From assembly GCA_050997075.1 (NCBI GenBank), contig JBPCRH010000039.1:1-30023 (forward strand): a DNA stretch of 30,023 bases, given 5' to 3'. Positions within the stretch are counted from its first letter, which is position 1. Every line of letters begins with the position of its first letter. The notes under the pieces are model-generated. The model was not told where the DNA came from. It made no database searches and saw only the letters and a program-made list of their open reading frames with translations. Shown here piece by piece: positions 173 through 28,490 of this stretch. Source of the stretch: Chthoniobacterales bacterium. Lineage in GTDB: Bacteria > Verrucomicrobiota > Verrucomicrobiia > Chthoniobacterales > UBA10450. A program made the translations under genes and the position numbers.

Positions 173-184
173 ACGGCTCCTTCG

Positions 185-973
185 TTAGGCGCGCGCTTCT
201 TCGCTCGAATACACGGCCGGGTCCTGCTGAAAGAAGCGCTGCATCTCGCCGTAAAGCTTGGGATGCAGACGCCGGAGTGCGTGCGGCTGCTCGAAAAACG
301 CTTCCGTCGTGACCGCGAAAAACTCCACGGGATTGGTCGCGCCGTAGGTGTCGAGCAAGGTCGGCATCCCCGTTTCATCGGAGGCCCGGAGGAGGGAAAA
401 TTCCGTGCGCATGACTATCGACCACGCGCGCACGTCATCGCGCGACGCGAGCGCGGGCACGCCGTCGGCCGCGAAATCTTCGAAGTCGAGCTGATGCGCA
501 AACTCGTGGATGACGAGATTTTTCCCATCGGCCGGATCGTGGCCGCCTTCCTTCGCGGCGTCCCAGGCGAGGACGAGCGAGCCCATCTGCCGCTGGGTTT
601 CGCCGAGGCGGCCGGAGTGACCTTCCGACCAGATCGCGCCGGAGAAGGGCTGATTTTCTTTCACCAAATAGCCGCTCGGATAAACCAGGATCGTGAGGAG
701 CCGCGGGAAGTAGTTCGTCTTGCGATGGAGGAGGAGCAGGCAGGCCTGGGTCGCGATCGTGACCCGCATCTCGTCGGTCACTTCGAGGCCGGCGCAGCCT
801 TCGAGGCGTTTCTCCGCGAGGAAGACCTGGAGATGACCGAGCAACTCGCGTTGATCGGGGGCCGGGAGGCGGTGAAAAAACGGGAGGTTGCGCGCGATGA
901 TTTGCTGCCACGCCGGTGGCACCGGCTCCTTGCGCAAGCGCCGCCGCCGCCGTTCCCGTCCGAGTCCGAACAT
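185..973 (-). CDS. Zinc-dependent peptidase, M90/MtfA family
   Basis: HEFAHQLD (HExxH), YGATNPVEFFAVTTEAFFE and ILVYP motifs typical of MtfA-like proteins. Start placed at ATG 973 (MFGLGRERRR); the ORF-track extension to 1111 runs into a REP element. Confidence 0.9.
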   Translation of the reverse strand: MFGLGRERRRRRLRKEPVPPAWQQIIARNLPFFHRLPAPDQRELLGHLQVFLAEKRLEGCAGLEVTDEMRVTIATQACLLLLHRKTNYFPRLLTILVYPSGYLVKENQPFSGAIWSEGHSGRLGETQRQMGSLVLAWDAAKEGGHDPADGKNLVIHEFAHQLDFEDFAADGVPALASRDDVRAWSIVMRTEFSLLRASDETGMPTLLDTYGATNPVEFFAVTTEAFFEQPHALRRLHPKLYGEMQRFFQQDPAVYSSEEARA

Positions 974-1023
974 AAGGCCGGAAGGTAGCGACGGAACCCG
1001 AGGCGCGCCAACCGCAGGTAGTT

Positions 1024-1140
1024 GTAGAGGCGGCCGTGTCGGCCGCAGAGCGAAGGCTTGCCCCCTGCCATGGGTCGGAAACAGGCGCGCTCCCCGACCA
1101 CTACGCGCCAACTAACTACGGGCGACACGCCCACCGCTAC
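1024..1140. repeat. REPIN-like doublet, GTAG-type REP family B
   Basis: GTAGAG-GCGGCCG-TGT-CGGCCGC at 1024-1046. The inverted partner reads GTAGCGG-TGGGCG-TGT-CGCCCG on the minus strand (1120-1140). Confidence 0.7.
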
Positions 1141-1182
1141 ACCGGCTTTCCGGGGCGGCAATAAATCTCGCGAATGACTCCG

Positions 1183-1307
1183 GTTGTCATACCGAGTCGC
1201 GCAGACGACGAGGGATCTCGCAGGCGCCTTTCGGCGTCGTTCCAGAAATCGCGTCGGGCAACGCTTGTGCGATCCCTCTCCGTGCTGCGGAGGATCGGGA
1301 TGACAAC
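1183..1307. repeat. Long palindromic repeat, family E (GTCATCCCGAG...GGATC / GATCC...CTCGGGATGAC), copy 1, degenerate
   Basis: Terminal arms GTTGTCATACCGA...GAGGGATCTC and GCGATCCCTC...TCGGGATGACAAC. Homologous to the copies at 5974 and 27805. Confidence 0.75.
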
Positions 1308-1319
1308 GACCGCTTCGCG

Positions 1320-1751
1320 TCAGCGCTGATCGAACACGTAGATCGCGAGACCGTGCGCGCCGGTTTTCACGAGGGGCGCGGCGCCGCTCGCTTCGCCGTT
1401 GACCGCGCTGTTCCGTGGGTAACCGCCGCCACCAAAACCGAGACCGATCGAGCCGCTCGGCTCATCGCCGACGAGACTGAGCAAGACGCCGTTCGCGCCG
1501 ACTTTCGCGGCTTCTTCTCTCAAGCGCTGGATCGCTTCCGCATCGGTCTGCTGATCGCCATGGAAGAAGTGCGCGCTCGTGCTCGCGTCGATCTGCGCGA
1601 TCTCCTGGAAATGCGCCGGGCGCGTCTGATAGATGCGCACCTGCGCCGGATCGATCAGCGGTCGCGCCGGACCGACCAGGTGCGTGGAACTGCTCGCGCA
1701 ACCGGCGAGAAAAAGGGCACCTACGAGAGCGGCCGAAGGGAAATATCTCAT
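1320..1751 (-). CDS. Putative lipoprotein with a YbjQ/heavy-metal-binding-like small domain
   Basis: Signal peptide with lipobox LAGC; segment AIQRLREEAAKVGANGVLL is typical of this fold. ATG 1751 is preceded by a purine-rich AAAGAAG. Confidence 0.7.
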   Translation of the reverse strand: MRYFPSAALVGALFLAGCASSSTHLVGPARPLIDPAQVRIYQTRPAHFQEIAQIDASTSAHFFHGDQQTDAEAIQRLREEAAKVGANGVLLSLVGDEPSGSIGLGFGGGGYPRNSAVNGEASGAAPLVKTGAHGLAIYVFDQR

Positions 1752-1801
1752 CACTTCTTTAACGCTTCTCGGGAGCAGCGCGGTCGCCCGCATGCAGCCC
1801 G

Positions 1802-2335
1802 TCACGACAAGTGTTTCTCCACGAGCTTGTGAAGGCTGGTCAGGTTGCGCATCGAAGAGCTGGGAAGTTTTAGTGCCTTCAACTCCGGCGACGTCCAGAC
1901 TTTTGATTCGGAAGTGCGCACACGGCAGAGCCAGTAATACTCGCGGCCGCGGACGCGAAACGCATCCTCCGCAGTGCGCACGGCCTCGAGCATTCGCGCA
2001 ACTGCGACCGGGAGTTTTTCATGCAGAAATCCTACGTGCACGGTGTCGCCGGCCTTCGTGGGAAACGCCGCGAAGCGGTCGATCGCAACCACCTCGTCCG
2101 CGGTCCGGACGAACGTGTCGACCTTGTAGCCTAACGACTCCTCCAAATGCCGCGCGATCTTCGTTTCGAGCTGGCCTGTCTCTGTCGCCTTGCTCGCGAA
2201 GAGGACGTTCCCGCTCGCGATAAAAGTTGCGACCTCCGTGAAGCCCAGCTCTGCAAAAAGCTCGCGCAACCGACTCATCGGCGGGCGCCGGCGGCCGAGA
2301 TTTATCCCGCGCAGGAAGGCGACATATTTCTGCAT
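1802..2335 (-). CDS. DUF1697 domain-containing protein
   Basis: YVAFLRGINLG, VATFIASGNVLF and C-terminal S(M)RNLTSLHKL motifs. Start at ATG 2335. Confidence 0.9.
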   Translation of the reverse strand: MQKYVAFLRGINLGRRRPPMSRLRELFAELGFTEVATFIASGNVLFASKATETGQLETKIARHLEESLGYKVDTFVRTADEVVAIDRFAAFPTKAGDTVHVGFLHEKLPVAVARMLEAVRTAEDAFRVRGREYYWLCRVRTSESKVWTSPELKALKLPSSSMRNLTSLHKLVEKHLS

Positions 2336-2465: not shown

Positions 2466-2936
2466 ATGGCTGCAAAGACTCCCGAGACTACTTCCCAAAT
2501 CAACGGCCCGCTGGTGAAGCAGTTTTCCGTTTTCCTGCCGAACAAAGTGGGCGCGATGCTCGACATCGTGAAACTCCTGAGCTCTCGCAACACCCACGTG
2601 GTCGCGCTCAGCATCGCCGAGCAGACCGATTCCGCGATTGCCCGCATCGTCGTGAGCGATCCCGAGACGGTGGAGAATATCTTCCACGAACACGACGTCG
2701 CCTTCAGCGTCTGTGAGCTCCTCGTGGTGGAAATGGCGGAGGTCGCGACCGAACTGGCGGAGTTGCTGGCGGCGCTCCTCATGGCGGAGGTGAACATGCA
2801 TTTCAGCTACCCGCTCCTCACCAGGCCGCACGGTCTCGCCGCGCTCGCACTCCATGTCGACGACACCGAATGTGCCGCTTCAGTCCTGCACGGCGAAGGC
2901 TTCAAGATGTTGAGCCAGGCGGATATCTCTCGTTAG
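2466..2936 (+). CDS. Tandem ACT-domain protein (amino-acid-binding regulatory type)
   Basis: [22 protein letters not shown] ... ARIVVSDP and a second ACT repeat ([15 protein letters not shown]). Start at ATG 2466. Confidence 0.8.
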
Positions 2937-2963
2937 GCCAGCGCTCACCTGGAGAAACTCACC

Positions 2964-3044
2964 TGGAGGGACGAGCTCCCGCGAGCGTTGGGAACGCCCC
3001 GTTGCCCAATTCGCGCCCACGGCGTCGCGGAGCTCCGCCCTCCA
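2964..3044. repeat. REPIN-like doublet, GGAG-type REP family D (TGGAGGGACGAGCTCC)
   Basis: TGGAGGGACGAGCTCCCGCG at 2964 and inverted CGCGGAGCTCCGCCCTCCA ending at 3044. Overlaps/follows the direct repeat CTCACCTGGAG x2 (2944, 2958). Confidence 0.65.
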
Positions 3045-3123
3045 CATCCGAGCCGCGCTTTGCCTCTCTCAGCGGCGAAAATCCGTTGCCCCAGCGCAGG
3101 CGGAAGGGAATGTTACCGGCCCG

Positions 3124-4302: not shown

Positions 4303-4340
4303 CTCGAAACGAAGAACCTCAAGAGGGGGCACCTGCTGTA

Positions 4341-4472: not shown

Positions 4473-4478
4473 CCCCTA

Positions 4479-5496: not shown

Positions 5497-6741
5497 CTAA
5501 GTCGCATCGACCCTCAGCCTCATTTGCACGCTCAACCCTTCGCGCGGAAGCGGCGGCGAAAAAACCGGCGGATAAAGCTGCGGATCCATCCCCGTAACCT
5601 GGAGGCGAAACGGCTCCGCGCTCAGGCGCACACAATCGCCACCTAACGACAACTCGTCCAGCTTCAGGCCGCGCCCGTCGGCCGCGATCTCGGCAATTTC
5701 GACCACGGTGAGGGCACTAAAAAAATCAATCCGCAGGTGACGCACCGGCTCGTCCGCCGGAAGCGGGATGACCACTTCCTTCCAGCTCCCGTGTCCGATC
5801 CGGGCATCGACCGATTGCGTTTCCGAGAAGTTTCCATCCGTCGACCAGAAAACCTGGAGCACGGTCTCGCTCGCCATCGGCGCGCGGCGAACGCTCCCAT
5901 CGCGCCATTGCCGCGCCATCATCTCCTGCAAGGCGCCGTGGCGCTGCCGATAATAAAAGCGCAAACCATCACGGTCATCCGGAGCGGAGCGCAGCGCAGT
6001 CGAAGGATCCCGGGGAGTCGCCGTGAGGCTCCCAGCGCCCGTGCGGTCGCTTCCCAGAAACTCAGCGGGATCCCTCGACTCCGCTCCGCTTCGCTCGGGA
6101 TGACCGAGTAACGTCTCCAGGAGCGCCGATTGCGCGCGCGCCGGCGGCTTTTCCCACACCCCGAGTCCCGGCGGAGTCGCGAAGGTAAAAGAGCGTCCGC
6201 GCGTCGCGAGTTCCTCCCACACTTTCCAAACGCCAAACCCTCGCCCACGCACCGCCACATCGTGGAGTAGAAGAATCCCACCCGGGCGCAGCTTCGGCAG
6301 CCATGACTCGACGTCGTGCCGCGCCGCCTCTTCCGTGTGATGACCGTCGACGTGCAGCAGATCAACGCTCTCCCGCGCGAACCGGCTGAGCGCGTCATCG
6401 AAGCTCGACCGCAGCAAAGTCGAGAAGGCCGCGTAGTGAACCCGATTATGTTCACTCACGTCCTGGTAAGTCGCTTCGTCATAAGATCCGGCGTGCGAAT
6501 CACCCAGCCAATGATCGACCGCGAAACACCTGGTGCCGGTCTGGTTTTCGCAGACCGACTGACAGAAGGCAAAATAACTTTCCCCGCGATCGGTGCCTAA
6601 CTCCACGAACACTTCGGGGCGCAACTGCGCGACCAGGTCGTAGGCGAAGAAGATATGTTCCGTCCACGCGCCCAAGCCATAGCGCAACGGCTCGAAATCG
6701 TGCGAAGGATAACTCGGGAGGCAACGCTCAAGGGGCGGCAT
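5497..6741 (-). CDS. Class I SAM-dependent methyltransferase (Methyltransf_24-like) with an in-frame palindromic insert and a C-terminal beta-sandwich domain
   Basis: FVELGTDRGES, CFAVDHWLGD, VDLLHVDGHHT and GGILLLHDV motifs. ATG 6741 is preceded by GGAGGAGG. Confidence 0.9.
   Translation of the reverse strand: MPPLERCLPSYPSHDFEPLRYGLGAWTEHIFFAYDLVAQLRPEVFVELGTDRGESYFAFCQSVCENQTGTRCFAVDHWLGDSHAGSYDEATYQDVSEHNRVHYAAFSTLLRSSFDDALSRFARESVDLLHVDGHHTEEAARHDVESWLPKLRPGGILLLHDVAVRGRGFGVWKVWEELATRGRSFTFATPPGLGVWEKPPARAQSALLETLLGHPERSGAESRDPAEFLGSDRTGAGSLTATPRDPSTALRSAPDDRDGLRFYYRQRHGALQEMMARQWRDGSVRRAPMASETVLQVFWSTDGNFSETQSVDARIGHGSWKEVVIPLPADEPVRHLRIDFFSALTVVEIAEIAADGRGLKLDELSLGGDCVRLSAEPFRLQVTGMDPQLYPPVFSPPLPREGLSVQMRLRVDAT
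5974..6105. repeat. Family E palindromic repeat, copy 2, inside the methyltransferase CDS (132 bp = 44 codons)
   Basis: GTCATCCGGAGCGGAGCGCAGCGCAGTCGAAGGATCCC ... GGGATCCCTCGACTCCGCTCCGCTTCGCTCGGGATGACC. Translated as GHPERSGAESRDP...RDPSTALRSAPDD. Confidence 0.92.
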
Positions 6742-7254: not shown

Positions 7255-8793
7255 CTATGAGGCGCTGATTGGGAGGTGGTGTGATTTGATCGGACAATTG
7301 GCGCAGGCCGGGTCGCCTTCCGGCCGAAACATGTTCCGGCGCAGACGTTGGAACGCTTCCCCATGGAAGATTTCGGCGAGAGTTTTTCCTTCGCTCAGAA
7401 ATCCCAGCGGCTTTTCGTGAAAGGGACAGGGCAGCACTTCATTTTGGTCCCGCAGCGTGATTTCCGAGAACGGCCGATTACAAAAGGTGGTGGAAAATTC
7501 CTCGGCCACGGAGCCCTCCCAGATTCTCGACCGATCGTTGCTGTACTTTGTGAGCGCCGGTAACGCTTCGCCCGACGGCTGCGGTTGCACGTGATTAAAA
7601 TCGGTCCAGTCAACCTCCGGCTCCTCAAGCGGCGGAGTCCACGAACCCGCGCCTGCAAAGGCCGGTGGAAGGAAAATCCCCACTCCCAGCCGATTCGCCT
7701 CCGCCAGGATCCGCGCTCGATAAAAATTATATCTTGCGGGCTGATCCGCGAGCAGATCATCAGGCGAAAAGTATTTTTTGATCGGCACCAAATGCCGGAA
7801 GTCGATCGATTCCGCGCCCAGCGCCTGCGCCATCCTAACGAACGCCGGGGCTTCGTGAATGTTCCGATTCATCATCACGAAATTAAAAACAAAGGTGGGC
7901 CGTTGCGCGCCGCAACTCCGCCGGAGATCACGCAACGCCATGATGTTTCCCACCACCTGCTCATAAGAACAGCCCACGCGGATCGATTCGAGCAGAGGCT
8001 TGCTCACGGCATCGATCGAAAAAAGCAATCGCGCCACACCCGTCTCCAAAATGCACCGGCGGATCGGCGCCCGCAGGAGCATTGCATTGGTGCAGAATTC
8101 GATCGCCACCTCGGGATGTTCGCGCGCGAGATACTCGAGAATCCCGGGGAGGTGTTTCGAAACCAAAGGCTCGTCGCCGCAGGAAAGCATCACCTCGCGC
8201 ACGGACGGCCCGATGCCGTCGAAAAGCCTTTTGAATTCGTCGGTCGTGAGCTGGGTAGTCGGCCGCTTGAAAATGGCGTCATCGCTGAAGTGACACATCA
8301 CGCAGCGCAAATTGCACTTGTTGATGATATCGAGACGCAGAGTGAGCGCACGCTGTTTGCCTAACGAACGGAGAAAACGATTTTCAAATTCAGCGGGCTC
8401 CTCCAGCGCGCCGAAAACCTCGTGATCCTCCTCCACCGCCGTCGTGTCGTTCAGCGCGATCTTCTGAACCTCGCGCGTGTCAAAGTTTACCGAGACGCGA
8501 TGTATTCCAGCGCCGACCCTGACGAACAGAGTGGCCTCGCCGCCAAACAAGATTTGAGTAGCGATCGTTAGGCGAAATCCGGAATCTTCCGCGCCCGGAT
8601 AAAGCGGGTAAGCCGCGCGCACATCTGGCCGCGGAAAACCGAGCGGCAGTTGTTCGTACTGAATATCGACATTGTAGAGATAGAGCGCGCCGATGGGAGT
8701 GGTCGCAATGCACCAACCTTCCACTCGGGTGATCCGCCCGTCGGCAGGATCGCGCCGTGCGAGATCGCTGCAAAAAATGAGGTGCTCGTCCAT
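7255..8793 (-). CDS. Radical SAM protein with a SPASM/twitch-like C-terminus and an N-terminal GW..RPDV..SGF module
   Basis: CNLRCVMC (CxxxCxxC), SCGDEPL, FCTNA and FSIDA motifs; C-terminal CNRPF...LPCPF...CANCP. Confidence 0.92.
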   Translation of the reverse strand: MDEHLIFCSDLARRDPADGRITRVEGWCIATTPIGALYLYNVDIQYEQLPLGFPRPDVRAAYPLYPGAEDSGFRLTIATQILFGGEATLFVRVGAGIHRVSVNFDTREVQKIALNDTTAVEEDHEVFGALEEPAEFENRFLRSLGKQRALTLRLDIINKCNLRCVMCHFSDDAIFKRPTTQLTTDEFKRLFDGIGPSVREVMLSCGDEPLVSKHLPGILEYLAREHPEVAIEFCTNAMLLRAPIRRCILETGVARLLFSIDAVSKPLLESIRVGCSYEQVVGNIMALRDLRRSCGAQRPTFVFNFVMMNRNIHEAPAFVRMAQALGAESIDFRHLVPIKKYFSPDDLLADQPARYNFYRARILAEANRLGVGIFLPPAFAGAGSWTPPLEEPEVDWTDFNHVQPQPSGEALPALTKYSNDRSRIWEGSVAEEFSTTFCNRPFSEITLRDQNEVLPCPFHEKPLGFLSEGKTLAEIFHGEAFQRLRRNMFRPEGDPACANCPIKSHHLPISAS

Positions 8794-10087: not shown

Positions 10088-11191
10088 ATGGAAAGTTTTT
10101 CCGCACTCCGGGTTTTGTTTTTCGCGCATGAGACGACCTGGAGCGGAGCGCCGATTCAGCTGCTCCATTTGGTCACGTGGCTACAACGCCACGGCTGGCA
10201 GGTGGCCGTCGTGGTCCCCAATCCCGCTACGCCGGAATCAGGTCCGATTTCGGATCAGCTCAGAGAGAACGGTTTGGAGATTTTTCCGTTGCTCGACCTT
10301 GCCGTTGAGCCTGATTTGGCGGCGCTGCGCTCCTTGTGCAAAAAATTCGACGCCGTCGTCGCCAACACCCTGGTCATGTCCGCGGCGGTGCGCGCGGCGC
10401 ACGAGGCAGGCATAGCGGCCATCTGGTATATCCATGAAAGCCTCGTCGCTCGGCAGTTGATGGCGCAACATGCCGAAATTCAACCGACATTCGCGCTGGC
10501 TGATCTCCTCGTGATGCCGACCCGCCGCACGTCGCAAATTTATCTTTCCTTCACCGATCGTCCGATCGAAGTGGTGCCCTACGGCATTCCGGCGGCCGTG
10601 GCTTCCAAGGCCACGAAGCGGGATGATCCCGCACTGTGCACGTTTCTGCTCCTGGGTTGCTACGAGTTACGCAAGGGCCAGGATATCTTGCTTGAAGCGA
10701 TCGCGGGAATGCCCGCGACCGTGCGCGAGCGGGCCATCTTTCGAATGGCGGGCCGCAAGCTGGATCGGAAGTTTTACGAAGCGCTCGCGCGCACGGCGGC
10801 GGCTTTGCCTGAGGTTGAACTGCTCGACGCGCTCGACCATGACGAGGCCTGCGCCGCCCTTGCCGCTGCGGACGTCCTCGTCTGCGCCTCGCGCGATGAA
10901 ACAATGCCGATCGCGATTCTGGAAGCGATGAGTCTCGGGAAAGCAGTCGTGAGCACAGAGGTCGGCGGCATCAGTGAGTGGCTCTGCGACCGCCAGAACG
11001 CGCTGCTCGTTCCAACGGACGATAGCCCTGCTCTCATGCAGGCGATGAGACGCTGCATCGAAGAGTCGCGGTTGCTGGAGTCGTTAGGCAGGAACGCGCA
11101 AGCTACCTTTCGCGAGAATTTTTCTGTCGATCGGTTAGGCGAACGCTTTTCGGCTTTGATCGAGCGCGCGCTGAGCATGAAAATTCGATGA
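10088..11191 (+). CDS. Glycosyltransferase family 4 (GT-B)
   Basis: SGAP, WYIHE, RKGQDILLEA and ETMPIAILEAMSLGKAVVSTEVGG motifs. Start at ATG 10088. Confidence 0.92.
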   Translation: MESFSALRVLFFAHETTWSGAPIQLLHLVTWLQRHGWQVAVVVPNPATPESGPISDQLRENGLEIFPLLDLAVEPDLAALRSLCKKFDAVVANTLVMSAAVRAAHEAGIAAIWYIHESLVARQLMAQHAEIQPTFALADLLVMPTRRTSQIYLSFTDRPIEVVPYGIPAAVASKATKRDDPALCTFLLLGCYELRKGQDILLEAIAGMPATVRERAIFRMAGRKLDRKFYEALARTAAALPEVELLDALDHDEACAALAAADVLVCASRDETMPIAILEAMSLGKAVVSTEVGGISEWLCDRQNALLVPTDDSPALMQAMRRCIEESRLLESLGRNAQATFRENFSVDRLGERFSALIERALSMKIR

Positions 11192-12795
11192 CCTACACCG
11201 ACTGGATCGTCCGCTACGACACTTTGACGCCCGAGAAACGTGCTGAGCTTCGCCGCGAAGTCTACGCGTTGAGTGATCAGCCGCTCATCTCGATTCTCCT
11301 GCCGGTTTACAATGCCGATCTAAGATTCCTGGACGAAGCGATCGCTTCGGTGCGGCGACAGATTTATGACAAGTGGGAGCTCTGTATTGCCGACGATGCG
11401 TCCACCAACCTGCGAGTAAGGTCCTATCTCGAGGCGCTCGCCTGGAGCGATACGCGCATCAAACTGCTCTTCCGCGAGGTGAACGGCCACATCTCTGCCT
11501 GCTCCAATTCGGCGCTCACGCTGGCCAGCGGTGATTGGTGTGCGCTCCTCGACCAGGATGATGCGCTCGCCGAAAACGCGCTCGCCGAAGTCGCCTGCGC
11601 AATCGCGGGACACGCAGACCCTGGCATCATTTACTCCGACGAAGATTTCCTCGACTCGTTAGGCGCGCGTTCCAACCCATTCTTCAAGCCGGATTGGAAT
11701 CCCGAACTCTTTTTGGGACAGAATTACCTTAACCATCTTGGCGTTTATCGGACGAGTCTGCTGCGCGAAATCGGCGGATTCCGCGAAGGGTTTGAAGGTT
11801 CCCAGGATTACGATCTTGCGCTGCGCTGTCGCGCGCGTTTGCGACCCGATCAAATTCTTCACGTCCCGCGCATTCTTTATCATTGGCGAATGATTGTGGG
11901 AAGTCTCGCCGACCAGCCCGATGCGAAACCATACGCGCGCCACGCCGCGCGCCGGGCGCTCAACAGTTACTTGCGCGAATGTGGGATCGCAGCTCAGGCA
12001 GAGGCCTGCCCGGAAAATGCAGAATCGCATCGTGTCATTTACGAGCTGCCAGTACCGTTTCCGAGCGTGACAATCCTGCTGATGGGGCGCGACAGGCCGT
12101 CCTCGCTGGAGCGCACTGATTATCCCGCGCTTGAATTTATTCTGGCGGAACCCGGTGCAGCCGGAGCGAACTTCGCGGCGAGAAATGCTCGCGGAGAAGT
12201 CCTCGTTTTTTTGAGCGGCGAAATTGAAGTTATCGAACCGTCCTGGCTCAGAGAGATGGTTAGTCACGCCATCAGACTCGAGGTCGGGGCGGTGGGCGCG
12301 CGCCTTTGGTCGGCCGATGGGAATCTTGACGATGGAGACCTGATCCTCGGCCTGGGCGGAATTGCCGCCCCGGCGTTTCGCGGCTTTCCGCGGGGGCACC
12401 CGGGCTATTTTAATCGCGCCTGGCTCCAGCAAAATTGTTCGGCTGTTTCGGCCGCCTGCATGGTCATGCGGAAAGAAGCTTTTACTCAGCTCGACGGCTT
12501 CGACGAACGGAATCTCTCGCGCCGCTTTTTCGACGTGGATTTCTGCCTCCGGCTGCGCCAGCGCGGGTTGCAAGTGGTCTGGACGCCGTATGCCAACCTA
12601 ATCTTTCGCGGGTCCGGCTCGCGCGAGGAATCGCAATCCTCAGCCGAAGCGGTTTACATGCAGAAGCAGTGGGGCCCGCAGTTACGCAACGATCCATTTT
12701 ACAATCCTAACCTGTCGCTCGATCCACCAGGATTTGGGATAGCGTTTCCGCCCCGGCCCAATGACATTAACTCTGGCCAACGACCGGTCCGGTGA
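11188..12795 (+). CDS. Glycosyltransferase family 2, two GT-A domains, second domain degenerate
   Basis: ISILLPVYN, CIADDAS, LLDQDD, YSDED and SQDYDL in domain 1. ATGA overlap with the upstream GT4. Confidence 0.92.
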   Translation: MTYTDWIVRYDTLTPEKRAELRREVYALSDQPLISILLPVYNADLRFLDEAIASVRRQIYDKWELCIADDASTNLRVRSYLEALAWSDTRIKLLFREVNGHISACSNSALTLASGDWCALLDQDDALAENALAEVACAIAGHADPGIIYSDEDFLDSLGARSNPFFKPDWNPELFLGQNYLNHLGVYRTSLLREIGGFREGFEGSQDYDLALRCRARLRPDQILHVPRILYHWRMIVGSLADQPDAKPYARHAARRALNSYLRECGIAAQAEACPENAESHRVIYELPVPFPSVTILLMGRDRPSSLERTDYPALEFILAEPGAAGANFAARNARGEVLVFLSGEIEVIEPSWLREMVSHAIRLEVGAVGARLWSADGNLDDGDLILGLGGIAAPAFRGFPRGHPGYFNRAWLQQNCSAVSAACMVMRKEAFTQLDGFDERNLSRRFFDVDFCLRLRQRGLQVVWTPYANLIFRGSGSREESQSSAEAVYMQKQWGPQLRNDPFYNPNLSLDPPGFGIAFPPRPNDINSGQRPVR

Positions 12796-13080: not shown

Positions 13081-13398
13081 CGCTCCGGGCCGGTCGAGGA
13101 ACAGGCCGCGGAACTCGGCATCGACAACCTACAATTTGTCCTTACCCACACCTCCGAAAGATCGCGGCGCTTCACAGCTGCCAACATTGAAGATCTGCCG
13201 ATCGTCTGGCCGCTCGCCTATCCGGAGACGACGGCCAACCTTTATTTCAAGCGGCCGCAAGCTCGCGCGCTCACGCCGAACCGCACCGGTTTGGTCGCGG
13301 ACTTCGCGGGAGCCCGGGCGGGTGCAGATTACGCTGGACGATGTGCGCTCTTGGGCCGGCCGGCTTTTTCTCCACGGCCCCGCCGCTGCGGTTGCTCG

Positions 13399-15900: not shown

Positions 15901-18410
15901 GTCTTCCACGGCTGCGTCAGCCGCGGCGGGAAAGCGGGAGTAAAAAGCTCTTCGTCCAGCGAGAGATTCGGGTTGTAAAACGGGTCCGCGCGCAGAGTCT
16001 CGCCCCACTTCGCGTTCATGTATGCCACCTCCGCGAGAAAACGCGCCTGCTTCTCCCCCGTGTCTTCGAGACCGCGGCTGGCGGATTCATGATGGACCAG
16101 CTCGGCATGCGGCGTCCAGACGATCGCGAAGCCCGCCGCACGCAGCCGGAGGCAGAAATCGATGTCGTTGAAGGCAACCGCGAGGTGTTCCTGATCGAGC
16201 CCGCCGACTTCCAGATAAAGTTCCCGCCTAACGACTGCGCAAGCGGCCGTGACCGCGGAGAAATTCTGCGTCAGATGCGCGCGCGCGAAATAGCCGTCTT
16301 CCTCCCGCACGCCAAGATGGGCGTGGCCGGCGATGCCGCCGACGCCGAGGATGACGCCGCCATGTTGCAGCGTCCCGTCCGGATACCGGAGCCGCGCGCC
16401 GACCATCCCGACTTCCGGTCGGACCGCATGGCTCACCATCTCGCTCAGCCATTCTGCATTTTTCACCTCGATGTCGTTGTTGAGGAGGGCAACGAGCGAG
16501 CCGCGGGCGAGGGCGACGCCGAGGTTGTTCAGCCGGCTATAATTGAATGCGCCCTCGACCCGTTCCACCCGCACCCTCCCGCCTAACGAATCCAGATAGG
16601 CGAGCGTCTCCGGCTCGCGGCTCTCGTTGTCGAGCACGAGCACTTCAAAATTTTCGTAAACGGTTCGCGCGAAAATGCTCTCGATACATGCGCGCAGGAG
16701 CGCCATCCGATCGCGCGTCGGGATCAGAATCGAGACCAGCGGAGCCGGCGCCGGCAGCGGATATTTCACGCGCTGATAAATCCGATGATGGGGCACGACC
16801 AGGCCGCCGGTTCCGCGCCGGTCGAGATGTTCCTGGACGGCGCGGATGGCGGCGTTATGCGCATACGGTTTCGCGCGCAAGTCCGTGGCGGTGCTCTCCT
16901 CCGTCATCCGCCAATGATAAAGCACCCGCGAAATGTGGCCGATCTGCTCTGGCTCGATCTGCTCGAGGACGCGCAAAGCGAGATCGTAATCCTGCGAGCA
17001 TTCAAAACCTTCACGAAAGCCACCGATTCGCCTAACCAGCTCGCGCTCATGGACGACGAGGTGGCCAAAAAAATTCTGCCCGAGGAAAAGCTCGGGGTTC
17101 CAGTCGGATTTAAAATAGGGATCGCAACGCCGGCCGCGCGGGTCGAGCTTATCCTCGTCGCTGTAGAGCAGGCGGAGCGCACAATTTTCCCGCAGGGCAA
17201 GAGCGACGAAATAGAGCGCGGCCGGCGCAAGCTCATCGTCGTGATCGAGCAGGGCGATGAACTTTCCCTGCGCGAGCGCAAGGGCCTCATTCGAGGCGGC
17301 GGCGATCTGGCCGTTCGCCTTCCGGCGGAGCAGGCGGATGCGCGCATCGCGCCGGGCAAACTTCTGCAGAAGCGGCCAGATGCCGGGGCGGCTCGAGGCA
17401 TCGTCGGCGATGCAAAGTTCCCAATGCGGATAGAGCTGCGCTTGCGCCGAGCGAACGGCGCGACGGAGCCAGCGCGGGTCCGGGTTGTAAACGGGGAGGA
17501 GGATGGAGATGAGCGGCGGATCCTCCCAACGGGCGATCTGCCCAGCAATGGCGCGGCGATCCTCGCGGGTGAGCTGGTCGTAGCGGCGAATCCAATAGGC
17601 GTAATCGCCGATCGTTTCCCCCCCGTCGCCTTCGCGCCAGAGCGGTCCGCGCACTGGATGCGTGAAGAACTTTTCCCACTCGCCCGCGCCGCTCCGCACT
17701 TCGAGGAAAAGTTGGGCGCGGCCAGGCGGCGCCACGATGTCGATGGTGAATCCGCTCACGAGCGCGCCCGGCCGATCGGGGAAAAGCATCGCGATATCGG
17801 GTCGGACCAGCCCGAAGCGGCCGGCAAATTCCTTCCGCCGCAGCCGCGCCCGCACCGCCGTGAGAGGTTCCCCCGCCGTCGCGAGACACCAGCCGGAGAG
17901 GCGGAGATGGCGCCGCCGCACCGACCAGTCGGCGGGCCGGTCGAGCCAGAAATCGATCCGCGAGCTGGCCGCAGGATTCGGGATGAAATATTTCGGGTCC
18001 TGCGGTGGCGCCGGCTTTTCGTTAGGCGCGCCGATCCAACTGCGGCAGTCGATCGGCTGCCACGTTCCCGGTCCATCCCTGATCTCGACCAGCACATCGG
18101 ATGGGCCCGCGGGCAGCGGCACGGCGACGGCGAAGCCCACGCGCTCCGCGCCTGGGCCGAGATCGTGCGCGCAGGCGACATCCTTGCGTTCACTGCCGTA
18201 ATTGCCCGGAAAAACGCGCCGCCCGATCCGCGCCCGAATCTCGTGAATCCTTGCGCCCTCCTTGCGAGGGAGGCACCAACCCTGGAGATAGAGCGTGTGG
18301 CGCGGCGCGCTCGTTTCCGGCGGATGATCGAACCACCAACGATAACGCTTCTTCGTCCGCTTAATCTGGTTCGCCAGCGAGAGGGCGGGCGCTGCCGAAA
18401 AAAACCTCAT
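15897..18410 (-). CDS. Glycosyltransferase family 2 with two N-terminal RPDV modules and two GT-A domains
   Basis: ISILLPVYN/CIADDAS/LLDHDD in domain 1 and SILIPTRD/VLDNES/LLNNDIE/HHESASRG in domain 2. ATG 18410 preferred over TTG 18434. Confidence 0.92.
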   Translation of the reverse strand: MRFFSAAPALSLANQIKRTKKRYRWWFDHPPETSAPRHTLYLQGWCLPRKEGARIHEIRARIGRRVFPGNYGSERKDVACAHDLGPGAERVGFAVAVPLPAGPSDVLVEIRDGPGTWQPIDCRSWIGAPNEKPAPPQDPKYFIPNPAASSRIDFWLDRPADWSVRRRHLRLSGWCLATAGEPLTAVRARLRRKEFAGRFGLVRPDIAMLFPDRPGALVSGFTIDIVAPPGRAQLFLEVRSGAGEWEKFFTHPVRGPLWREGDGGETIGDYAYWIRRYDQLTREDRRAIAGQIARWEDPPLISILLPVYNPDPRWLRRAVRSAQAQLYPHWELCIADDASSRPGIWPLLQKFARRDARIRLLRRKANGQIAAASNEALALAQGKFIALLDHDDELAPAALYFVALALRENCALRLLYSDEDKLDPRGRRCDPYFKSDWNPELFLGQNFFGHLVVHERELVRRIGGFREGFECSQDYDLALRVLEQIEPEQIGHISRVLYHWRMTEESTATDLRAKPYAHNAAIRAVQEHLDRRGTGGLVVPHHRIYQRVKYPLPAPAPLVSILIPTRDRMALLRACIESIFARTVYENFEVLVLDNESREPETLAYLDSLGGRVRVERVEGAFNYSRLNNLGVALARGSLVALLNNDIEVKNAEWLSEMVSHAVRPEVGMVGARLRYPDGTLQHGGVILGVGGIAGHAHLGVREEDGYFARAHLTQNFSAVTAACAVVRRELYLEVGGLDQEHLAVAFNDIDFCLRLRAAGFAIVWTPHAELVHHESASRGLEDTGEKQARFLAEVAYMNAKWGETLRADPFYNPNLSLDEELFTPAFPPRLTQPWKT

Positions 18411-21047: not shown

Positions 21048-21650
21048 TCAGGATCTCTCGATCGACCGTTCGAGCCAGTTATTCAACTGGCGGCGCCAGT
21101 TGCGCTTTTGCTTTTCGTTAGGCCGACGGGCCACGAGGACGGAGTCATGCCATTTGTTGCTCTCCTCGTCGAAGTCCTGGAGGTCGTCCCATTGCGTCCA
21201 GGCTTCGAGCGTCTCGAGCCCACCGTAACGCGCCGCCGCGCGCAAGCCGTCGGGATAAAACCGCCAACAATCGACCGGATAGCGATGCTCCGGGCCGCTC
21301 GATGGCGCGACGATGCAGCAAAGACCGCCCGGTCTTAATGCGTGACAAATCTCGCGCATCGTTAGCCAGAAAAATTCCGTGTGCTCAAACGTCTGGCCGG
21401 AAACGATCACATCGGCGCTTCCGCTTCGGATTTCCCGCCAGCGATAGGGTTCGCGCAGGACGATGTCGACATTCGGGCCCGCGGCCATGTCGATCCCGAG
21501 GTAGCGCCATGGTTTGCGATCGAAAAGCGGGCGATAGGAGCCGTTAAAATCCTGGCTGCCGAGGTCGAGAATGACGAGCGGTTCGGCCGCCCGGTCGCCG
21601 AGATATTTCTGGGCGAAGGCGGCCATCTTCTCGAACGAGCTCGGATGCAT
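21048..21650 (-). CDS. Class I SAM-dependent methyltransferase (Methyltransf_11-like)
   Basis: ILDLGSQDFNGSY, GIDMAAGPNVD, SGQTFEH, LRPGG and HRYPVDCWRF motifs. Confidence 0.9.
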   Translation of the reverse strand: MHPSSFEKMAAFAQKYLGDRAAEPLVILDLGSQDFNGSYRPLFDRKPWRYLGIDMAAGPNVDIVLREPYRWREIRSGSADVIVSGQTFEHTEFFWLTMREICHALRPGGLCCIVAPSSGPEHRYPVDCWRFYPDGLRAAARYGGLETLEAWTQWDDLQDFDEESNKWHDSVLVARRPNEKQKRNWRRQLNNWLERSIERS

Positions 21651-22561: not shown

Positions 22562-23683
22562 ATGAGAATCACCATCGTCACCGGCGCGTTTTTCCCGGTC
22601 CCCGCGCTCATGGGCGGCGCGGTCGAGAAAGTCTGGTTCACGCTCGGTCAAGAATTCGTTAGGCGTGGGCACCAGGTCACGCACATCTCACGAGCGCATC
22701 CGGAGCTGGCGGCGGCGGAAGAAATCGCCGGGGTGCAACATCGCCGCGTGCGCGGTTACGCCCAGCCGCGCGCGATCGTTAGGCTGAAGTTACTCGACCT
22801 GTTTTATTCGCTCCGGGTGCGCCGGATTTTGCCGGCCGCCGATATTTTGGTGACCAACACTTTCTGGCTGCCGATGCTCGTGCGCGGAAGGCAGCGCGGC
22901 TTGGTTTACGTGCACGTGCAGCGGGGGCCGAAGGGACAGATGCGCTGGTATGCGCATGTCGCGCGACTCTGTGCGGTCTCGCGAGCGATCGCGGACGACA
23001 TCGTCGCGGAAGCGCCGCAGCTCCGCGAAAAAGTGCGGGTGTTGCCGAACGCGCTCCCCTTTCGAATCGATCGCACGCCGAGCGCGACGCGGGAGAAGAC
23101 GCTGCTCTTCGTCGGTCGAGTGCACCCCGAAAAAGGGATCGAACTCTTCCTGTGCGCGCTCGCGGAATTGCCGCCGCCGGTGCTCGAGGGCTGGGCCGTA
23201 AAAATCGTCGGCCCGCATGAGACCGCGCTCGGCGGGGGCGGCGAAGATTTTCGACGCGAGATGCAGTCTTTAGGCGAGCGGAGCGGCGCGCCGCTCGAGT
23301 GGGTCGGGAAGATTTTCGATCCGGCCGCGCTCACCGCGCAATACCGCGCAGCGCAGTTGTTCATCTATCCGTCGATCGCGGAGACGGGCGAGGCGTTGCC
23401 GGTCGCGCCGCTCGAGGCGATGGCGAATGGCTGCGCACCGATTGTTTCCGGTCTTGCCTGTTTTCGCGATTACATTGCGGACAACGTGAACGGGTTTGTC
23501 TTCGATCATCGCGCGCCGGAGCCGGCGAAAGCCCTCGCCGCGCGGCTCACGCAGGTGCTGCGCTTGCCCGCGGACGAAGTGCGTCGAATCGGCGAGGCGG
23601 CGCAGGCGACGGCCGAGGAATTCTCGGTCGAAAATGTGGCCTCGCGTTATCTGGAAGACTTCGCGAGTCTCCTCGGAAAATGA
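22562..23683 (+). CDS. Glycosyltransferase family 4 (GT-B)
   Basis: GGAVEKVW, LFVGRVHPEKG and GEALPVAPLEAMANGC motifs. Confidence 0.92.
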   Translation: MRITIVTGAFFPVPALMGGAVEKVWFTLGQEFVRRGHQVTHISRAHPELAAAEEIAGVQHRRVRGYAQPRAIVRLKLLDLFYSLRVRRILPAADILVTNTFWLPMLVRGRQRGLVYVHVQRGPKGQMRWYAHVARLCAVSRAIADDIVAEAPQLREKVRVLPNALPFRIDRTPSATREKTLLFVGRVHPEKGIELFLCALAELPPPVLEGWAVKIVGPHETALGGGGEDFRREMQSLGERSGAPLEWVGKIFDPAALTAQYRAAQLFIYPSIAETGEALPVAPLEAMANGCAPIVSGLACFRDYIADNVNGFVFDHRAPEPAKALAARLTQVLRLPADEVRRIGEAAQATAEEFSVENVASRYLEDFASLLGK

Positions 23684-24243
23684 CCGCGCCGCTCCAACCT
23701 GTCGATCCGGCGCAGAACTCGCCCTACGCGTCGCCGTGGTCGAGTTCGGAGCGGGCACTGCGCGTTCTTTGGGAATTTTGCTGGGCGGTTTTTTGTTCCT
23801 GGACGCCGAAACCGCTGAACCCGTGGCGGCTTTTCTTGCTGCGCACGTTCGACGCGAAAATTCACGGGATGCCGTTTGTGCATCAGCGCGCGCGGATCGC
23901 GATTCCCTGGAACCTGACGATGCACGACCGCGCCAGCCTGGGCGATCGGGCGAATGCCTATTCGTTAGGCGAAATCGAAATCGGCCCACGCGCGATCGTC
24001 GCCCAGGAAGTTTATTTGAGCTCGGGGAGTCACGACTTTTCCCAACCCGCCTGTCCGCTGGTGGTCGCGAAAATCACGATCGGGGAGGAAGCGTTTATCG
24101 GCGCGCGGGCGTTCGTGATGCCGGGCGTGACGATCGGGGCGCGGGCGCTCGTAGGCGCCTGCTCGGTCGTGACCAAGGATCTGCCGAGTGATGTCGTGGC
24201 CGCGGGCAATCCCTGCCGCGTGTTGCGTCCGCGCGGGCTGTAG
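23680..24243 (+). CDS. wcaF: WcaF-like polysaccharide O-acetyltransferase (left-handed beta-helix)
   Basis: WTPKPLNPWRLFLLRTF, PWNLTM, SSGSHDFS, hexapeptide repeats and VAAGNPCR. ATGA overlap with the GT4 gene. Confidence 0.85.
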   Translation: MTAPLQPVDPAQNSPYASPWSSSERALRVLWEFCWAVFCSWTPKPLNPWRLFLLRTFDAKIHGMPFVHQRARIAIPWNLTMHDRASLGDRANAYSLGEIEIGPRAIVAQEVYLSSGSHDFSQPACPLVVAKITIGEEAFIGARAFVMPGVTIGARALVGACSVVTKDLPSDVVAAGNPCRVLRPRGL

Positions 24244-24326
24244 ACGCTTCGCTCTGCGAAGCGCGGGAGGAGCGTATGCGGGCGGACGGCGTCGATCCCG
24301 CGTTTCGCAGAGCGAAACGTCTACAG
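24238..24326. repeat. REPIN of REP family C
   Basis: CTGTAGACGCTTCGCTCTGCGAAGCG (24238-24263) and inverted CGTTTCGCAGAGCGAAACGTCTACAG (24301-24326). Supplies the TAG stop of the wcaF-like gene. Confidence 0.9.
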
Positions 24327-24359
24327 TAGCAGCAGCATTCGCCAGGGTTACGCGCGAGG

Positions 24360-26286: not shown

Positions 26287-26288
26287 GC

Positions 26289-26323: not shown

Positions 26324-26341
26324 CTAGGTCTGGCGTGCCCG

Positions 26342-27733
26342 CTAAAACTCGGCGCTGCCCGGGGTGCGCGCGAAAGGGATGACGTCCCGGATATTCGCCA
26401 CTCCGGTCACGAACATGAGCATGCGCTCGAAGCCCATTCCGAAGCCCGCATGCGGGACGGTGCCGTAGCGGCGCAGGTCGAGATACCATTTGTAATCGGC
26501 CGGATCCATTTGATGCCGGCGGATGTTTTCCTCGAGCACCTCGAGGCGCTCTTCACGCTGGCTGCCACCGACGATTTCGCCGATGCCCGGGACGAGCAGG
26601 TCCATCGCTGTCACCGTGCTCTCGTCGTCGTTCAGGCGCATGTAGAACGGCTTGATCTCCTTTGGGTAATCGAAAACCGTAACCGGACACTTGCAGTGTT
26701 TTTCGGTGAGCCAGCGCTCGTGTTCGGATTGGAGGTTGAGGCCGTAATCGACCGGGAACTCGAACTTCTCGCCGCTCGCGAGGAGGAGTTTTATTGCCTC
26801 TTCGTAGCTGATCCGCTGGAAGGGTCGCTCGACCACAAACTCGAGGCGCGCGAGCAGTTCCTTGTCGACGCATTTCGCGAAAAGCCCGAGGTCTTCCGCG
26901 CAGTTCTCGCGGATGTCGCGCACGAGGTATTTCACCATTTCCTCGGCGAGATCCATGTCGCCCGCGAGATCGCAAAAAGCCATCTCCGGCTCGATCATCC
27001 AGAACCCATTCGCGTGCCGGGACGTGTTCGAGTTCTCCGCGCGGAAAGTCGGACCAAAGGTGTAAACCTTCGAGAGCGCGCAGGCGAACGCCTCGGCCTC
27101 GAGCTGGCCGCTGACCGTGAGATAAGTGCGCCGCGCGAAAAAATCCTGCGCGTAATCGACGCCGCCGTCGTTAGGCAAAACCGGCGCGTTTTGCGGATCG
27201 AAGGTGGTGACGCGGAAGAGCTCGCCCGCGCCTTCGCAGTCGCTCCCGGTGATGATCGGCGTGTGCACGTAAACGAAGCCGCGTTCCTGGAAGAATTGGT
27301 GCACGGCGAATGCGAGCCGGCTGCGCACGCGGAAGACGCAACCGAACAAATTCGAGCGCGGCCGCAGGTGCGAGATCTCACGGAGAAACTCCGGCGTGTG
27401 TCCCTTTTTCTGGAGCGGATAGGTCTCGTCGGACGCGCCCACGATCTCAATTTCATCGGCGACCAGTTCCCAGCTCTGGCCTTTCCCTTGCGAGGCGACG
27501 AGCGGACCGCGCGCGCGAAGCGAGGCGCCGGTCGTCAGGCGCTGGACGGCGTCGTAGTTCAGCAAAGTATCGCGCGCGATGATCTGGAGATTGCGCAGGC
27601 AGGAGCCATCATTGAGCTCCACAAAAGAGAACTCCTTCGCGTCGCGCCGGGTGCGCACCCACCCCTGCACCGTGATCACATCTGCCGGGACCGTGCGCGC
27701 GAGGGCTTCTTTCACTGATGTCGCCGAGGCCAT
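26342..27733 (-). CDS. asnS: Asparagine--tRNA ligase
   Basis: [48 protein letters not shown] and [11 protein letters not shown] motifs. Confidence 0.98.
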
Positions 27734-27804
27734 GACGAGAAACTCGCCGACGATCCAGTTCCGACAAGTAAAAGGCGAGCTCGTTAGGCACGGACGAAGG
27801 CCCG

Positions 27805-27907
27805 GTCATCCCGAGCGCAGGGCAGCGCAGTCGAGGAATCCCGGAGCAAGCTTTAAGGTTTCGCCACCGGATCCCTCGACTTTGCCTCCGGCTCCGCTCG
27901 GGATGAC
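27805..27907. repeat. Family E palindromic repeat, copy 3
   Basis: GTCATCCCGAGCG...GTCGAGGAATCC ... GGATCCCTCGAC...CGCTCGGGATGAC, intergenic upstream of asnS. Confidence 0.88.
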
Positions 27908-27979
27908 GGGTTTTGCCACCGGTTTCCCTTCGGACCGACTTCGGTTTTGATCGGGAGGACCGGCTCGCTCGACCGCTCG

Positions 27980-28381
27980 TTAGGCAGTTTCCCGCATCGG
28001 TTCATCGTCGCCGAGCATTTCGTCGACGCAGTTGATGAGGTCGGAAATCTGAAACGGCTTCGCGACGAAGGAGTAGCCGCTGAGATAGCCGACCGAGCCG
28101 ATGACGCCGTTCGCGGCGAGGCTGCTCACGAAGACAATCGGCACATCCTGAAGCGCGGGATCGTCGCGGAGCTGTTGCGCGACTTCGTGGCCGTCGAGCT
28201 CCGGCATCATCATGTCGAGCAGGATCAGGTCCGGGTGAAAATGCCGGGCGGCATGGAGCGCGCGCAGACTGCGGTTCTCTTCCTTGATCACATAGCGCCC
28301 GGTGGCGGCGAAGGCGGCGCGGACGAGCGCGGTCAGATGCGGTTCGTCGTCGATGATGAGGAGGCGGCGCGGGAAGAACAT
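27980..28381 (-). CDS. Single-domain response regulator (CheY-like receiver)
   Basis: LIIDDE, DLILLDMMMPELDG (phospho-acceptor Asp), FVSS and VAKPF motifs. Confidence 0.92.
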   Translation of the reverse strand: MFFPRRLLIIDDEPHLTALVRAAFAATGRYVIKEENRSLRALHAARHFHPDLILLDMMMPELDGHEVAQQLRDDPALQDVPIVFVSSLAANGVIGSVGYLSGYSFVAKPFQISDLINCVDEMLGDDEPMRETA

Positions 28382-28402
28382 AAGCGGCTTTCGGTTATGG
28401 TA

Positions 28403-28411
28403 ATTATAGCA
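28403..28411 (-). promoter_or_regulatory. Extended -10 sigma70-type promoter for the receiver gene
   Basis: Minus strand reads TGcTATAAT, ending 21 nt before ATG 28381. No consensus -35. Confidence 0.6.
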
Positions 28412-28490
28412 TCCGCTGTGCCACCCCTTCCGTTAGGCAAACCGCTCCTTTTTTATCCCTCCCGCTATGCTTAATTGCTCCCTTGCCCTT

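Follow-up and report, generated by a model that had tools for sequence, protein, structure and literature searches.

A hyper-abundant nine-base word in one family of Chthoniobacterales: a possible analogue of DNA uptake signals that matches an integron attC junction

Introduction

In the literature that we searched, uptake-type words are described for two proteobacterial families only, the Pasteurellaceae and the Neisseriaceae. The uptake signal sequence (USS) of the Pasteurellaceae has a nine-base, non-palindromic core (AAGTGCGGT / ACAAGCGGT) that is equally frequent on both strands, occurs about once per 1–1.5 kb, lies mostly inside genes in every tolerated frame, and is family-wide and conserved at orthologous positions with turnover. 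Its variants are enriched at some positions only, and the sequence 3' of the core tends weakly to be A-rich. Here we describe a word, TCGTTAGGC (hereafter word A), that resembles the USS in all of these respects. Word A was noticed in a 30,023-nucleotide stretch of DNA from a Chthoniobacterales bacterium (contig JBPCRH010000039.1, whole length; hereafter the window), where an initial reading of the sequence (the original prediction) had proposed it as an unrecognized, roughly 100-fold enriched signal. Unlike the USS, it belongs to the Verrucomicrobiota, has an unrelated sequence, is not associated with terminators or inverted pairs, and coexists with unrelated words in the same genome (with a second word, B, in genus g42 and with a third, C, in the genome that contains the window).

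The DNA uptake sequence (DUS) of the Neisseriaceae (GCCGTCTGAA and its dialects), for which the minor pilin ComP is the receptor, is the other close parallel. Like word A, it shows the pattern of a self-tag that is shared across a family and differs between lineages (PMC3630211, PMC3868556), is depleted in foreign DNA and occurs together with type IV pilus genes. However, DUS dialects differ by 1–2 bases, whereas the words of the family described here (TCGTTAGGC, AAGATCGACA and GCACTAAA) are unrelated, and we found no ComP-like receptor; the one pilin that was tested fails to track the word. The cyanobacterial word HIP1 (GCGATCGC) shares with word A its hyper-abundance, its intragenic location in all frames, its lack of polarity and its conservation, but it is palindromic and methyltransferase-linked while word A is asymmetric. 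The core of the integron recombination site attC contains GTTAGGC, as does word A, and the nine-base word is the commonest form of the R' junction in this clade; unlike attC, word A lies in core genes and does not share the RY degeneracy, and 99% of its copies are without attC structure. A literature search for word A itself returned primers only, and the literature searched contained no report of word A or of uptake sequences in Verrucomicrobiota.

Results

The window is contig C28 of the study genome G000, a metagenome-assembled genome (MAG) of 2.48 Mb in 480 contigs, with 62% G+C and an estimated completeness of 61%. The product of its asnS gene is 79–85% identical to proteins of Spartobacteria, Chthoniobacterales and Candidatus Udaeobacter sp. 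MAGs. Candidatus Udaeobacter is among the most abundant soil bacterial lineages worldwide. The core CGTTAGGC occurs 22 times in the window (16 plus-strand and 6 minus-strand copies), compared to a mean of 0.63 and a maximum of 3 in 100 dinucleotide shuffles, and each of the 22 predicted copies was found to be exact and to lie at its predicted coordinates. Twenty of them read TCGTTAGGC, as had been claimed, and two read CCGTTAGGC. A further 10 copies carry one mismatch, where at least nine had been reported, so that 32 copies lie within one mismatch of the word compared to 5.7 expected.

Across G000, TCGTTAGGC is the top-ranking 9-mer, with 1595 copies (797 forward, 798 reverse). Markov models of orders 1–3 predict 13–21 copies, an excess of about 120-fold. 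Genes were called with a simple codon-usage model (2182 genes, 85.8% coding), and 1239 copies fall within coding sequences, compared to 31.6 ± 6 after synonymous-codon shuffling within genes and 6 ± 2 after codon-order shuffling. The corresponding 39–200-fold enrichment is a cautious figure at its lower end, since the synonymous-codon null is generous in re-using the rare codons that word A itself supplies: word A accounts for 20% of all TTA, 15% of all AGG and 13% of all CTA codons in G000. Both kinds of null, applied genome-wide, uphold the enrichment that had been estimated from the window. The original prediction had also named an assembly artefact as an alternative that would undo it. Word A recurs in more than 150 independent MAGs from many studies, long-read assemblies among them. 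The region is also covered by independently built Logan contigs of four public runs, each from a different study, and those of the probable source run show 0–5 differences across several word sites. The hyper-abundance of TCGTTAGGC is therefore not an assembly artefact.

Word A is as dense in coding as in non-coding DNA. In G000, 435 copies are read in sense frame 0 (SLG), 212 in sense frame 1 (xVRx), and 228 and 364 in the two antisense frames, while 130 lie at gene boundaries and 226 are intergenic; no copy was found within G000 genes in either of the two stop-containing frames. All four stop-free frames are thus occupied across the genome, as the frame use in the window had suggested. There is no coding-strand preference (647 sense and 592 antisense copies), and the intergenic share of 14.2% equals the non-coding share of G000. 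The word provides the stop codon of 139 of 1912 genes (7%; 61 TAG and 78 TAA), four of them in the window. The stop codons of G000 (TGA 680, TAG 654, TAA 578) include a share of TAG that is unusually high for 62% G+C, which the 61 word-supplied TAG stops explain only in part. Eleven FtsX/MacB-type permease paralogues (C104, C126, C144 and eight more) bear word A in one conserved motif, I/L-V-R-Q, read as GTT AGG.

The flanks of word A hold almost no information over 15 bases on each side. A weak preference for purine/A at positions +1 to +4 (0.1–0.2 bit) means that the 3' base, said to be unconstrained, is nearly but not entirely so. These flanks, together with an intergenic share of just 14%, led us to reject a miniature inverted-repeat transposable element or repetitive extragenic palindromic (REP) element as the source of the word. 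G000 does contain a REP-like palindrome (GTCATCCCGAGCG...GAGTCGAGGGATCCCG), with about 270 copies, conserved flanks and 69–75% of copies intergenic; three copies lie in the window.

Neither spacing nor orientation of word A shows any order. Gaps between copies are exponentially distributed (median 718 bases, coefficient of variation 1.03), consistent with Poisson rather than regular spacing, and the copies bear no relation to gene starts or ends. Adjacent copies agree in orientation in 50% of cases. Across 273 contigs with at least three copies, the variance of strand skew is 0.2356, compared to a binomial null of 0.2334 ± 0.018, which places any replication polarity below about 60:40 without the direction of replication being needed. 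The orientation of copies in G000 follows neither GC skew nor gene strand, and a contiguous 400 kb of the long-read relative G158 holds 79 plus-strand and 81 minus-strand copies. The 16:6 split in the window is chance.

One-mismatch variants of word A number 968 in G000, compared to about 496 expected, an excess that falls on positions 1, 2 and 9 only, apart from some at position 8. The most frequent are TTGTTAGGC and TCGTTAGGG (114 copies each), CCGTTAGGC (61) and TCGTTAGGT (57), and the position-8 variant TCGTTAGTC has 47 copies. Positions 3–7 show no excess; at position 4 variants are depleted, relative to a Markov expectation that is inflated by the word's own trinucleotides. The ending GGC (1595 copies) outnumbers GGT (57) 28-fold and GAC (16) 100-fold. 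Within one and the same CpG, C-to-T at position 2 is 14 times as frequent as G-to-A at position 3, which indicates that the variants reflect tolerance and not mutational bias. The pattern resembles what would be expected of the specificity profile of a DNA-binding protein.

We counted word A, with the reversed word as control, in 120 genomes of 36 genera of the family (121 with G000), in 16 sister families of the order, and in 400 genomes from about 80 families of the phylum. Four of the genomes (G004, G042, G047 and G054) are unpublished and genera g18 and g30 are represented by such genomes alone; the conclusions are independent of all four. All 32 (24 + 8) sampled genomes of the genus carry 1000–4300 copies, compared to 30–90 of the reversed word. 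Most of the 36 genera are enriched, by 2-fold to 100-fold, and counts across the 120 genomes range from background (13 in G064; 22–60 in some genomes of g23 and g49) to 2600, with a 15-fold spread (160 to 2400) inside genus g21. The 16 sister families are not enriched (19 copies or fewer each), and no genome of the phylum survey is enriched outside the family, genus g99 standing at about 2-fold over the control. In this genus, from another family of the class, genomes G496, G508 and G523 have 61–134 copies, about twice the reversed control; large attC arrays or mild enrichment may account for them. Enrichment is thus restricted to one family.

Word A is conserved well beyond the similarity of the sequence around it. 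In an alignment of G000 with 400 kb from G158, which paired 201 kb at 74.5% nucleotide identity, 49 of 123 word sites in G000 (40%) were found exact, in the same place and on the same strand, in G158, as were 49 of 86 in the reverse comparison. The baseline is 11.4% for generic 9-mers and 9.7% for control words of the same composition, so that word A is retained four times as often as the latter. Unshared sites (74 + 37) nevertheless exceed the 49 shared ones. At 47 of the sites present in a single genome, the two sequences differ by at least four bases out of nine, compared to 23.5 such sites expected, while their flanks align at 64–68%; this excess of multi-base differences within aligned flanks indicates directional creation of the word. 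In one example, GAG CTC GGG stands opposite TCG TTA GGC between near-identical flanks. The asnS copy of the window is a lineage-specific gain: none of 15 orthologues has it, and it is accompanied by the insertion of one codon in a variable loop. Word A is thus preserved and also actively created, and the price is the use of rare codons and, in some cases, altered amino acids.

The density of word A is reduced in DNA that is likely to be foreign, as had been expected of a self-tag. Genes in the decile of least typical codon usage have 0.36 copies per kb, compared to 0.57–0.73 in mid-range genes; the most codon-biased quartile is also lower, at 0.44. The longest contig without word A (C30, 11.9 kb; Poisson probability about 0.0005) also lacks word C and is a type I restriction-modification island with HsdM, HsdS, an AAA ATPase and HsdR (L149, G000:C30:1-11945). 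In the otherwise word-less sister-family genome G028, four copies of word A without attC context lie within 2.4 kb at a contig end (L152, G028:C2:640583-643004); they may have been acquired from the word-rich family, or reflect a join made during binning or assembly.

Word A is not the only such word in the family. A second, word B (AAGATCGACA, often as GCAAGATCGACA), is hyper-abundant in G046, G050, G067, G074 and other genomes, with up to 4650 copies. We counted it in the same 121 genomes. Genera g1, g19 and g35 are high in word A and have 8–63 copies of word B; g22, g26, g31, g39, g46, g47, g49, g50 and g28 are low in word A and have 500–2600 copies of word B; g42 is rich in both (350–1800 of word A, 2700–4650 of word B); and g40 and most of g23 are at background for both. 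A scan of G000 for further bare words returned GCACTAAA (word C), with 398 copies, 17 times the Markov expectation, 13% of them intergenic, and with all four stop-free frames and both strands in use. The other family genomes have 3–50 copies of word C. At 37 aligned word C sites, the relative never carries the word; the sites differ from the relative at 3.35 of 8 bases, compared to 2.28 expected, and word C typically arises through coordinated synonymous changes over Ala-Leu-Lys codons, for example GCS CTC AAG to GCA CTA AAA. Enrichment in G000 alone and absence from the relative indicate that such words are gained on a species time scale. A chimeric bin was rejected as the source of word C, as words A and C co-occur on 231 contigs; so was a repeat element, as flanks are shared at just 7 of 391 sites. 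The family thus carries a mosaic of unrelated words. At gene ends, words A and C often stand 5–16 bases ahead of the REP-like palindrome.

Genes for DNA uptake are widespread in the family. ComEC is present in 115 of the 121 genomes and in all 36 genera. DprA was found in four of five genomes checked, though not in the 61%-complete G000, and the genomes checked each encode three to four secretins and 12–18 prepilin-type genes; type IV pilus genes are present. ComEA-type proteins with an HHH_3 domain were found in only 68 of the 121 genomes and follow neither word A nor word B. The sole ComEA-type protein of G000 is a fusion of a staphylococcal-nuclease (SNase) domain to a C-terminal HHH_3 domain, and open frames of about 300 amino acids that resemble it recur across the family. 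The ComEA-type HHH_3 protein was rejected as specificity factor, since word-less G064 has one and none was found in G060 and G074, both rich in the word. We also clustered 63 pilin loci, drawn from four genomes that differ in word type. The single candidate with a suitable pattern (L115) was rejected because full-length orthologues occur in word-less and B-type genera and none occurs in the A-rich genus g21; the minor-pilin operons were too divergent to be assigned in this four-genome screen. Co-occurrence with competence genes, which the original prediction had proposed as a check, is uninformative: the uptake genes are equally present in word-less genera, and the ComEA-like HHH_3 proteins and the one pilin fail to track the word.

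The original prediction had not recognized word A from any described system. Bases 3–9 of the word, however, are the canonical integron core site GTTAGGC (R' box GTTRRRY). In G028, a few copies of word A form arrays at contig ends, in which they share one orientation and are spaced at 400–900 bases; every copy closes, on the 3' side, an imperfect palindrome of 95–115 bases (GCCTAACCAAGCGATGCAGC ... GTCGCTGATCTTTGTC-TCGTTAGGC). By their layout (R''-L''...L'-R') these palindromes are classical integron attC sites, and a contig neighbouring the arrays encodes an integron integrase. Transfer from the word-rich family was rejected as the origin of the G028 word clusters, most of which are attC arrays at contig ends. 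The same attC family lies beside intI in A-rich G066, word-less G064 and B-rich G052 and G094, and it also occurs in G000, whose cassette arrays have uniform attC sites about 120 bases long (RYCTAACCAAGCGATGCAGCCAAC ... GGTGGCTGATCTTGTTCTCGTTAGRY); G000, at 61% completeness, yielded no integrase.

To compare junctions, 67 attC sites from 6 genomes of 2 families were located by their L' box and R''-L'' half, without use of the word. Their R' junction reads TCGTTAG+RY, with the TC prefix in 65 of 67 and the endings GC (28), AT (18), AC (12) and GT (8); TCGTTAGGC is the commonest form (26/67). By a rough estimate, a random 9-mer would match a conserved attC window with a probability of about 1 in 1000 or less. 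An attC-type upstream context is present at only 21 of about 1590 copies in G000 (~1%), 11 full attC sites were found, and the imperfect palindrome is lacking at ~99% of the copies. IntI was found in 69 of the 121 family genomes and 28 of the 36 genera, word-less ones included, and the densest genome, G014, has no IntI match. Word B occurs in none of the arrays and was rejected as a part of attC; no attC counterpart was found for word B or word C. Many intI genes of the family have one in-frame stop (TGA, TAA or TAG) in an otherwise full-length match, for example at G066:C2:1405166-1406125 and G067:C2:135351-136295.

The copies in the window are listed in the table with the other features located here. 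Two short multi-copy sequences in the window, at 21707–21745 and 24237–24300, show depth peaks and many joints or loose ends in four metagenomes; they border a 2.56 kb segment with the GT4 and hexapeptide-transferase genes.

Table. Words, REP-like palindromes and other located features of G000 (positions without a contig name are those of the window)
Feature	Position	Strand	Context
TCGTTAGGC	182..190	+	reverse complement gives TAA stop of minus-strand gene 185-1111
TCGTTAGGC	2129..2137	-	sense (TCG TTA GGC), DUF1697 gene 1802-2401
TCGTTAGGC	2930..2938	+	gives TAG stop of ACT-domain gene 2421-2936
TCGTTAGGC	8359..8367	-	sense, radical SAM/SPASM gene 7255-8793
TCGTTAGGC	8565..8573	+	antisense, radical SAM gene 7255-8793
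TCGTTAGGC	11081..11089	+	sense, GT4 glycosyltransferase gene 9989-11191
TCGTTAGGC	11656..11664	+	sense, GT2 glycosyltransferase gene 11188-12795
TCGTTAGGC	13396..13404	+	reverse complement gives TAA stop of glycosyltransferase gene 13399-16008 (-)
TCGTTAGGC	14582..14590	+	antisense, gene 13399-16008
CCGTTAGGC (tolerated position-1 variant)	15064..15072	-	sense, gene 13399-16008
TCGTTAGGC	15628..15636	-	sense, gene 13399-16008
TCGTTAGGC	16226..16234	-	sense frame GTT AGG, GT2 gene 15897-18434
TCGTTAGGC	16581..16589	-	sense, gene 15897-18434
TCGTTAGGC	18019..18027	+	antisense, gene 15897-18434
TCGTTAGGC	21115..21123	+	antisense, methyltransferase gene 21048-21650
TCGTTAGGC	22656..22664	+	sense frame GTT AGG, GT4 gene 22562-23683
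TCGTTAGGC	22776..22784	+	sense frame GTT AGG, GT4 gene 22562-23683
TCGTTAGGC	23962..23970	+	within hexapeptide-transferase open reading frame 23299-24243
TCGTTAGGC	27168..27176	+	antisense (CCT AAC GA), asnS 26342-27733
TCGTTAGGC	27781..27789	+	intergenic, 16 bases ahead of REP-like palindrome 27805-27907
TCGTTAGGC	27977..27985	+	reverse complement gives TAA stop of gene 27980-28381 (-)
CCGTTAGGC (position-1 variant)	28430..28438	+	overlapping open reading frames 28404-28784 (-) and 27947-28474 (+)
GCACTAAA (word C)	1869..1876	-	genome-specific word
GCACTAAA (word C)	5714..5721	+	genome-specific word
REP-like palindrome	about 1183-1304		
REP-like palindrome	5974-6104		inside methyltransferase open reading frame
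REP-like palindrome	27805-27907		
Cassette array	C11:6046-8931		
Cassette array	C70:2124-3600		
Cassette array	C321:1036-2857		
Cassette array	C309:396-516		
Cassette array	C380:5821-5944		
SNase-ComEA fusion	L085:1498-2265 = G000:C403	-	staphylococcal-nuclease and C-terminal HHH_3 domains

Discussion

Word A is a lineage-specific, orientation-independent word, and a drive at the level of DNA probably preserves and creates it chromosome-wide. The explanation that we favor, with a probability of roughly 0.4, is that it is an analogue of DNA uptake signals maintained by such a drive. A surface or periplasmic uptake component would prefer double-stranded DNA that bears word A; word-bearing fragments from relatives would be imported more often and then recombined into the chromosome, and the word would spread to every site at which the encoded protein can accommodate it. 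The role of uptake in reading word A, and the nature of its receptor, we infer by analogy with the USS and the DUS. The original prediction of a signal that acts on DNA and not on protein, and that is lineage-specific, non-palindromic and intragenic at about 1 copy per 1.5 kb, is borne out. Among the uptake, recombination and chromosome-organization roles it had offered, a DUS/USS-like uptake role fits best, while Chi-like and KOPS-like roles fail for want of polarity.

Several observations weigh against an uptake signal. About half of all DUS and USS copies are reported to lie in terminators as inverted pairs; word A, unlike the DUS, is not concentrated there, and close inverted pairs make up about 3% of its copies (26 pairs within 100 bases) with no intergenic excess. 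Uptake genes are equally present in the word-less genera g23 and g40 and so do not discriminate, the ComEA-type HHH_3 protein was not found in G060 and G074 although these word-rich genomes are near-complete, and neither receptor candidate, the SNase-ComEA fusion or pilin L115, tracked word A. In g42, words A and B are interleaved within the same genes, so that unrelated words share one genome, and word C is enriched in G000 alone among the 121 family genomes. Such fast and patchy turnover looks more like that of mobile methyltransferase-like systems than that of a stable receptor.

The last point is at the heart of a HIP1-like explanation, which we consider doubtful but take more seriously than any other rival. 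Here the word would be all or part of the site of a sequence-specific system inside the cell, for example DNA modification coupled to biased repair or gene conversion, which turns near-matches into the word or shields the word from mutation, without uptake. Cyanobacterial HIP1 occurs about once per kb in all frames, is conserved in orthologues and is non-polar; the gain of unrelated words at the level of genus and species, the density spread inside g21 and the coordinated synonymous changes that write word C would all fit turnover of methyltransferase specificity. However, contiguous asymmetric sites of 8–10 bases exceed the usual methyltransferase sites, HIP1 is palindromic and words A, B and C are not, and no known mechanism yields a 100-fold enrichment, Vsr-type effects being small. 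The protein-like tolerance of variants, the conservation in orthologues and the family-wide distribution would equally suit an abundant nucleoid-associated or chromosome-organizing protein, with each copy kept by selection in cis. We regard this as very unlikely in view of the Poisson spacing, the absence of polarity and of any relation to gene ends, the 100-fold density range among genera, the sister families without the word and the high turnover of sites; nor is any nucleoid protein known to require exact 9-mers by the thousand. A polar signal of the Chi or KOPS type, read by RecBCD/AddAB or FtsK, would likewise be an over-represented non-palindromic word of comparable length, but strand skew at its binomial null, balanced strands in G158 and orientations independent of GC skew and gene strand lead us to reject it as far as sequence can tell, and we give it almost no weight.

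The match to the attC junction raises the question whether an integron integrase, or a related tyrosine recombinase, reads the word, its copies being docking or secondary (attG/attI-like) sites or products of recombinase activity. A coincidental match is improbable, IntI is common in the family, and integrases are known to insert cassettes at genomic attG sites (10.1101/2022.09.11.507474). We nonetheless hold this explanation to be unlikely, though a little less so than an architectural protein. Few copies have attC context, and copies arise by substitution in orthologous genes and not by insertion. The GGC ending dominates the genome whereas attC junctions use all four endings, so that the genomic word is far more specific. 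IntI and the attC family occur in unenriched genomes such as G064 and G028 and no IntI match was found in the densest one, which led us to reject IntI as the driver and to regard any association as weak. Docking sites in essential genes would moreover be harmful, and words B and C have no attC counterpart. A reading in which the two systems meet, and to which we assign a slightly higher but still low likelihood, is that the family runs a multi-word system for recognizing its own DNA, whose oldest word was recruited from the integron attC R' junction. Machinery that recognizes this junction would import cassettes and kin DNA preferentially; the junction word would since have been driven through the chromosome, and new words would have spread in genera (AAGATCGACA) or in a single species (GCACTAAA). 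In Vibrio cholerae, natural transformation supplies cassettes to the chromosomal integron (PMC12614218), the only organism for which this link between transformation and cassette recruitment has been shown experimentally (PMC12614218). It is on this ground possible, if speculative, that the word-reading system is tuned to the attC junction.

Should word A prove to be an uptake signal, tagging of kin DNA in this way would mean that a dominant, uncultured lineage of soil bacteria recombines often and with a bias towards kin. The word can serve as a marker for binning, for tracing DNA that enters or leaves the family, and for foreign islands. The family also offers natural contrasts, with 100-fold differences in density and two or three words that are unrelated, one of them restricted to one species, which make the origin of the words and the protein that reads them approachable by comparative genomics. 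That word A and the attC junction are identical points to a possible link of transformation with integron cassette capture; if the multi-word reading holds, it would couple natural transformation to cassette recruitment in this family.

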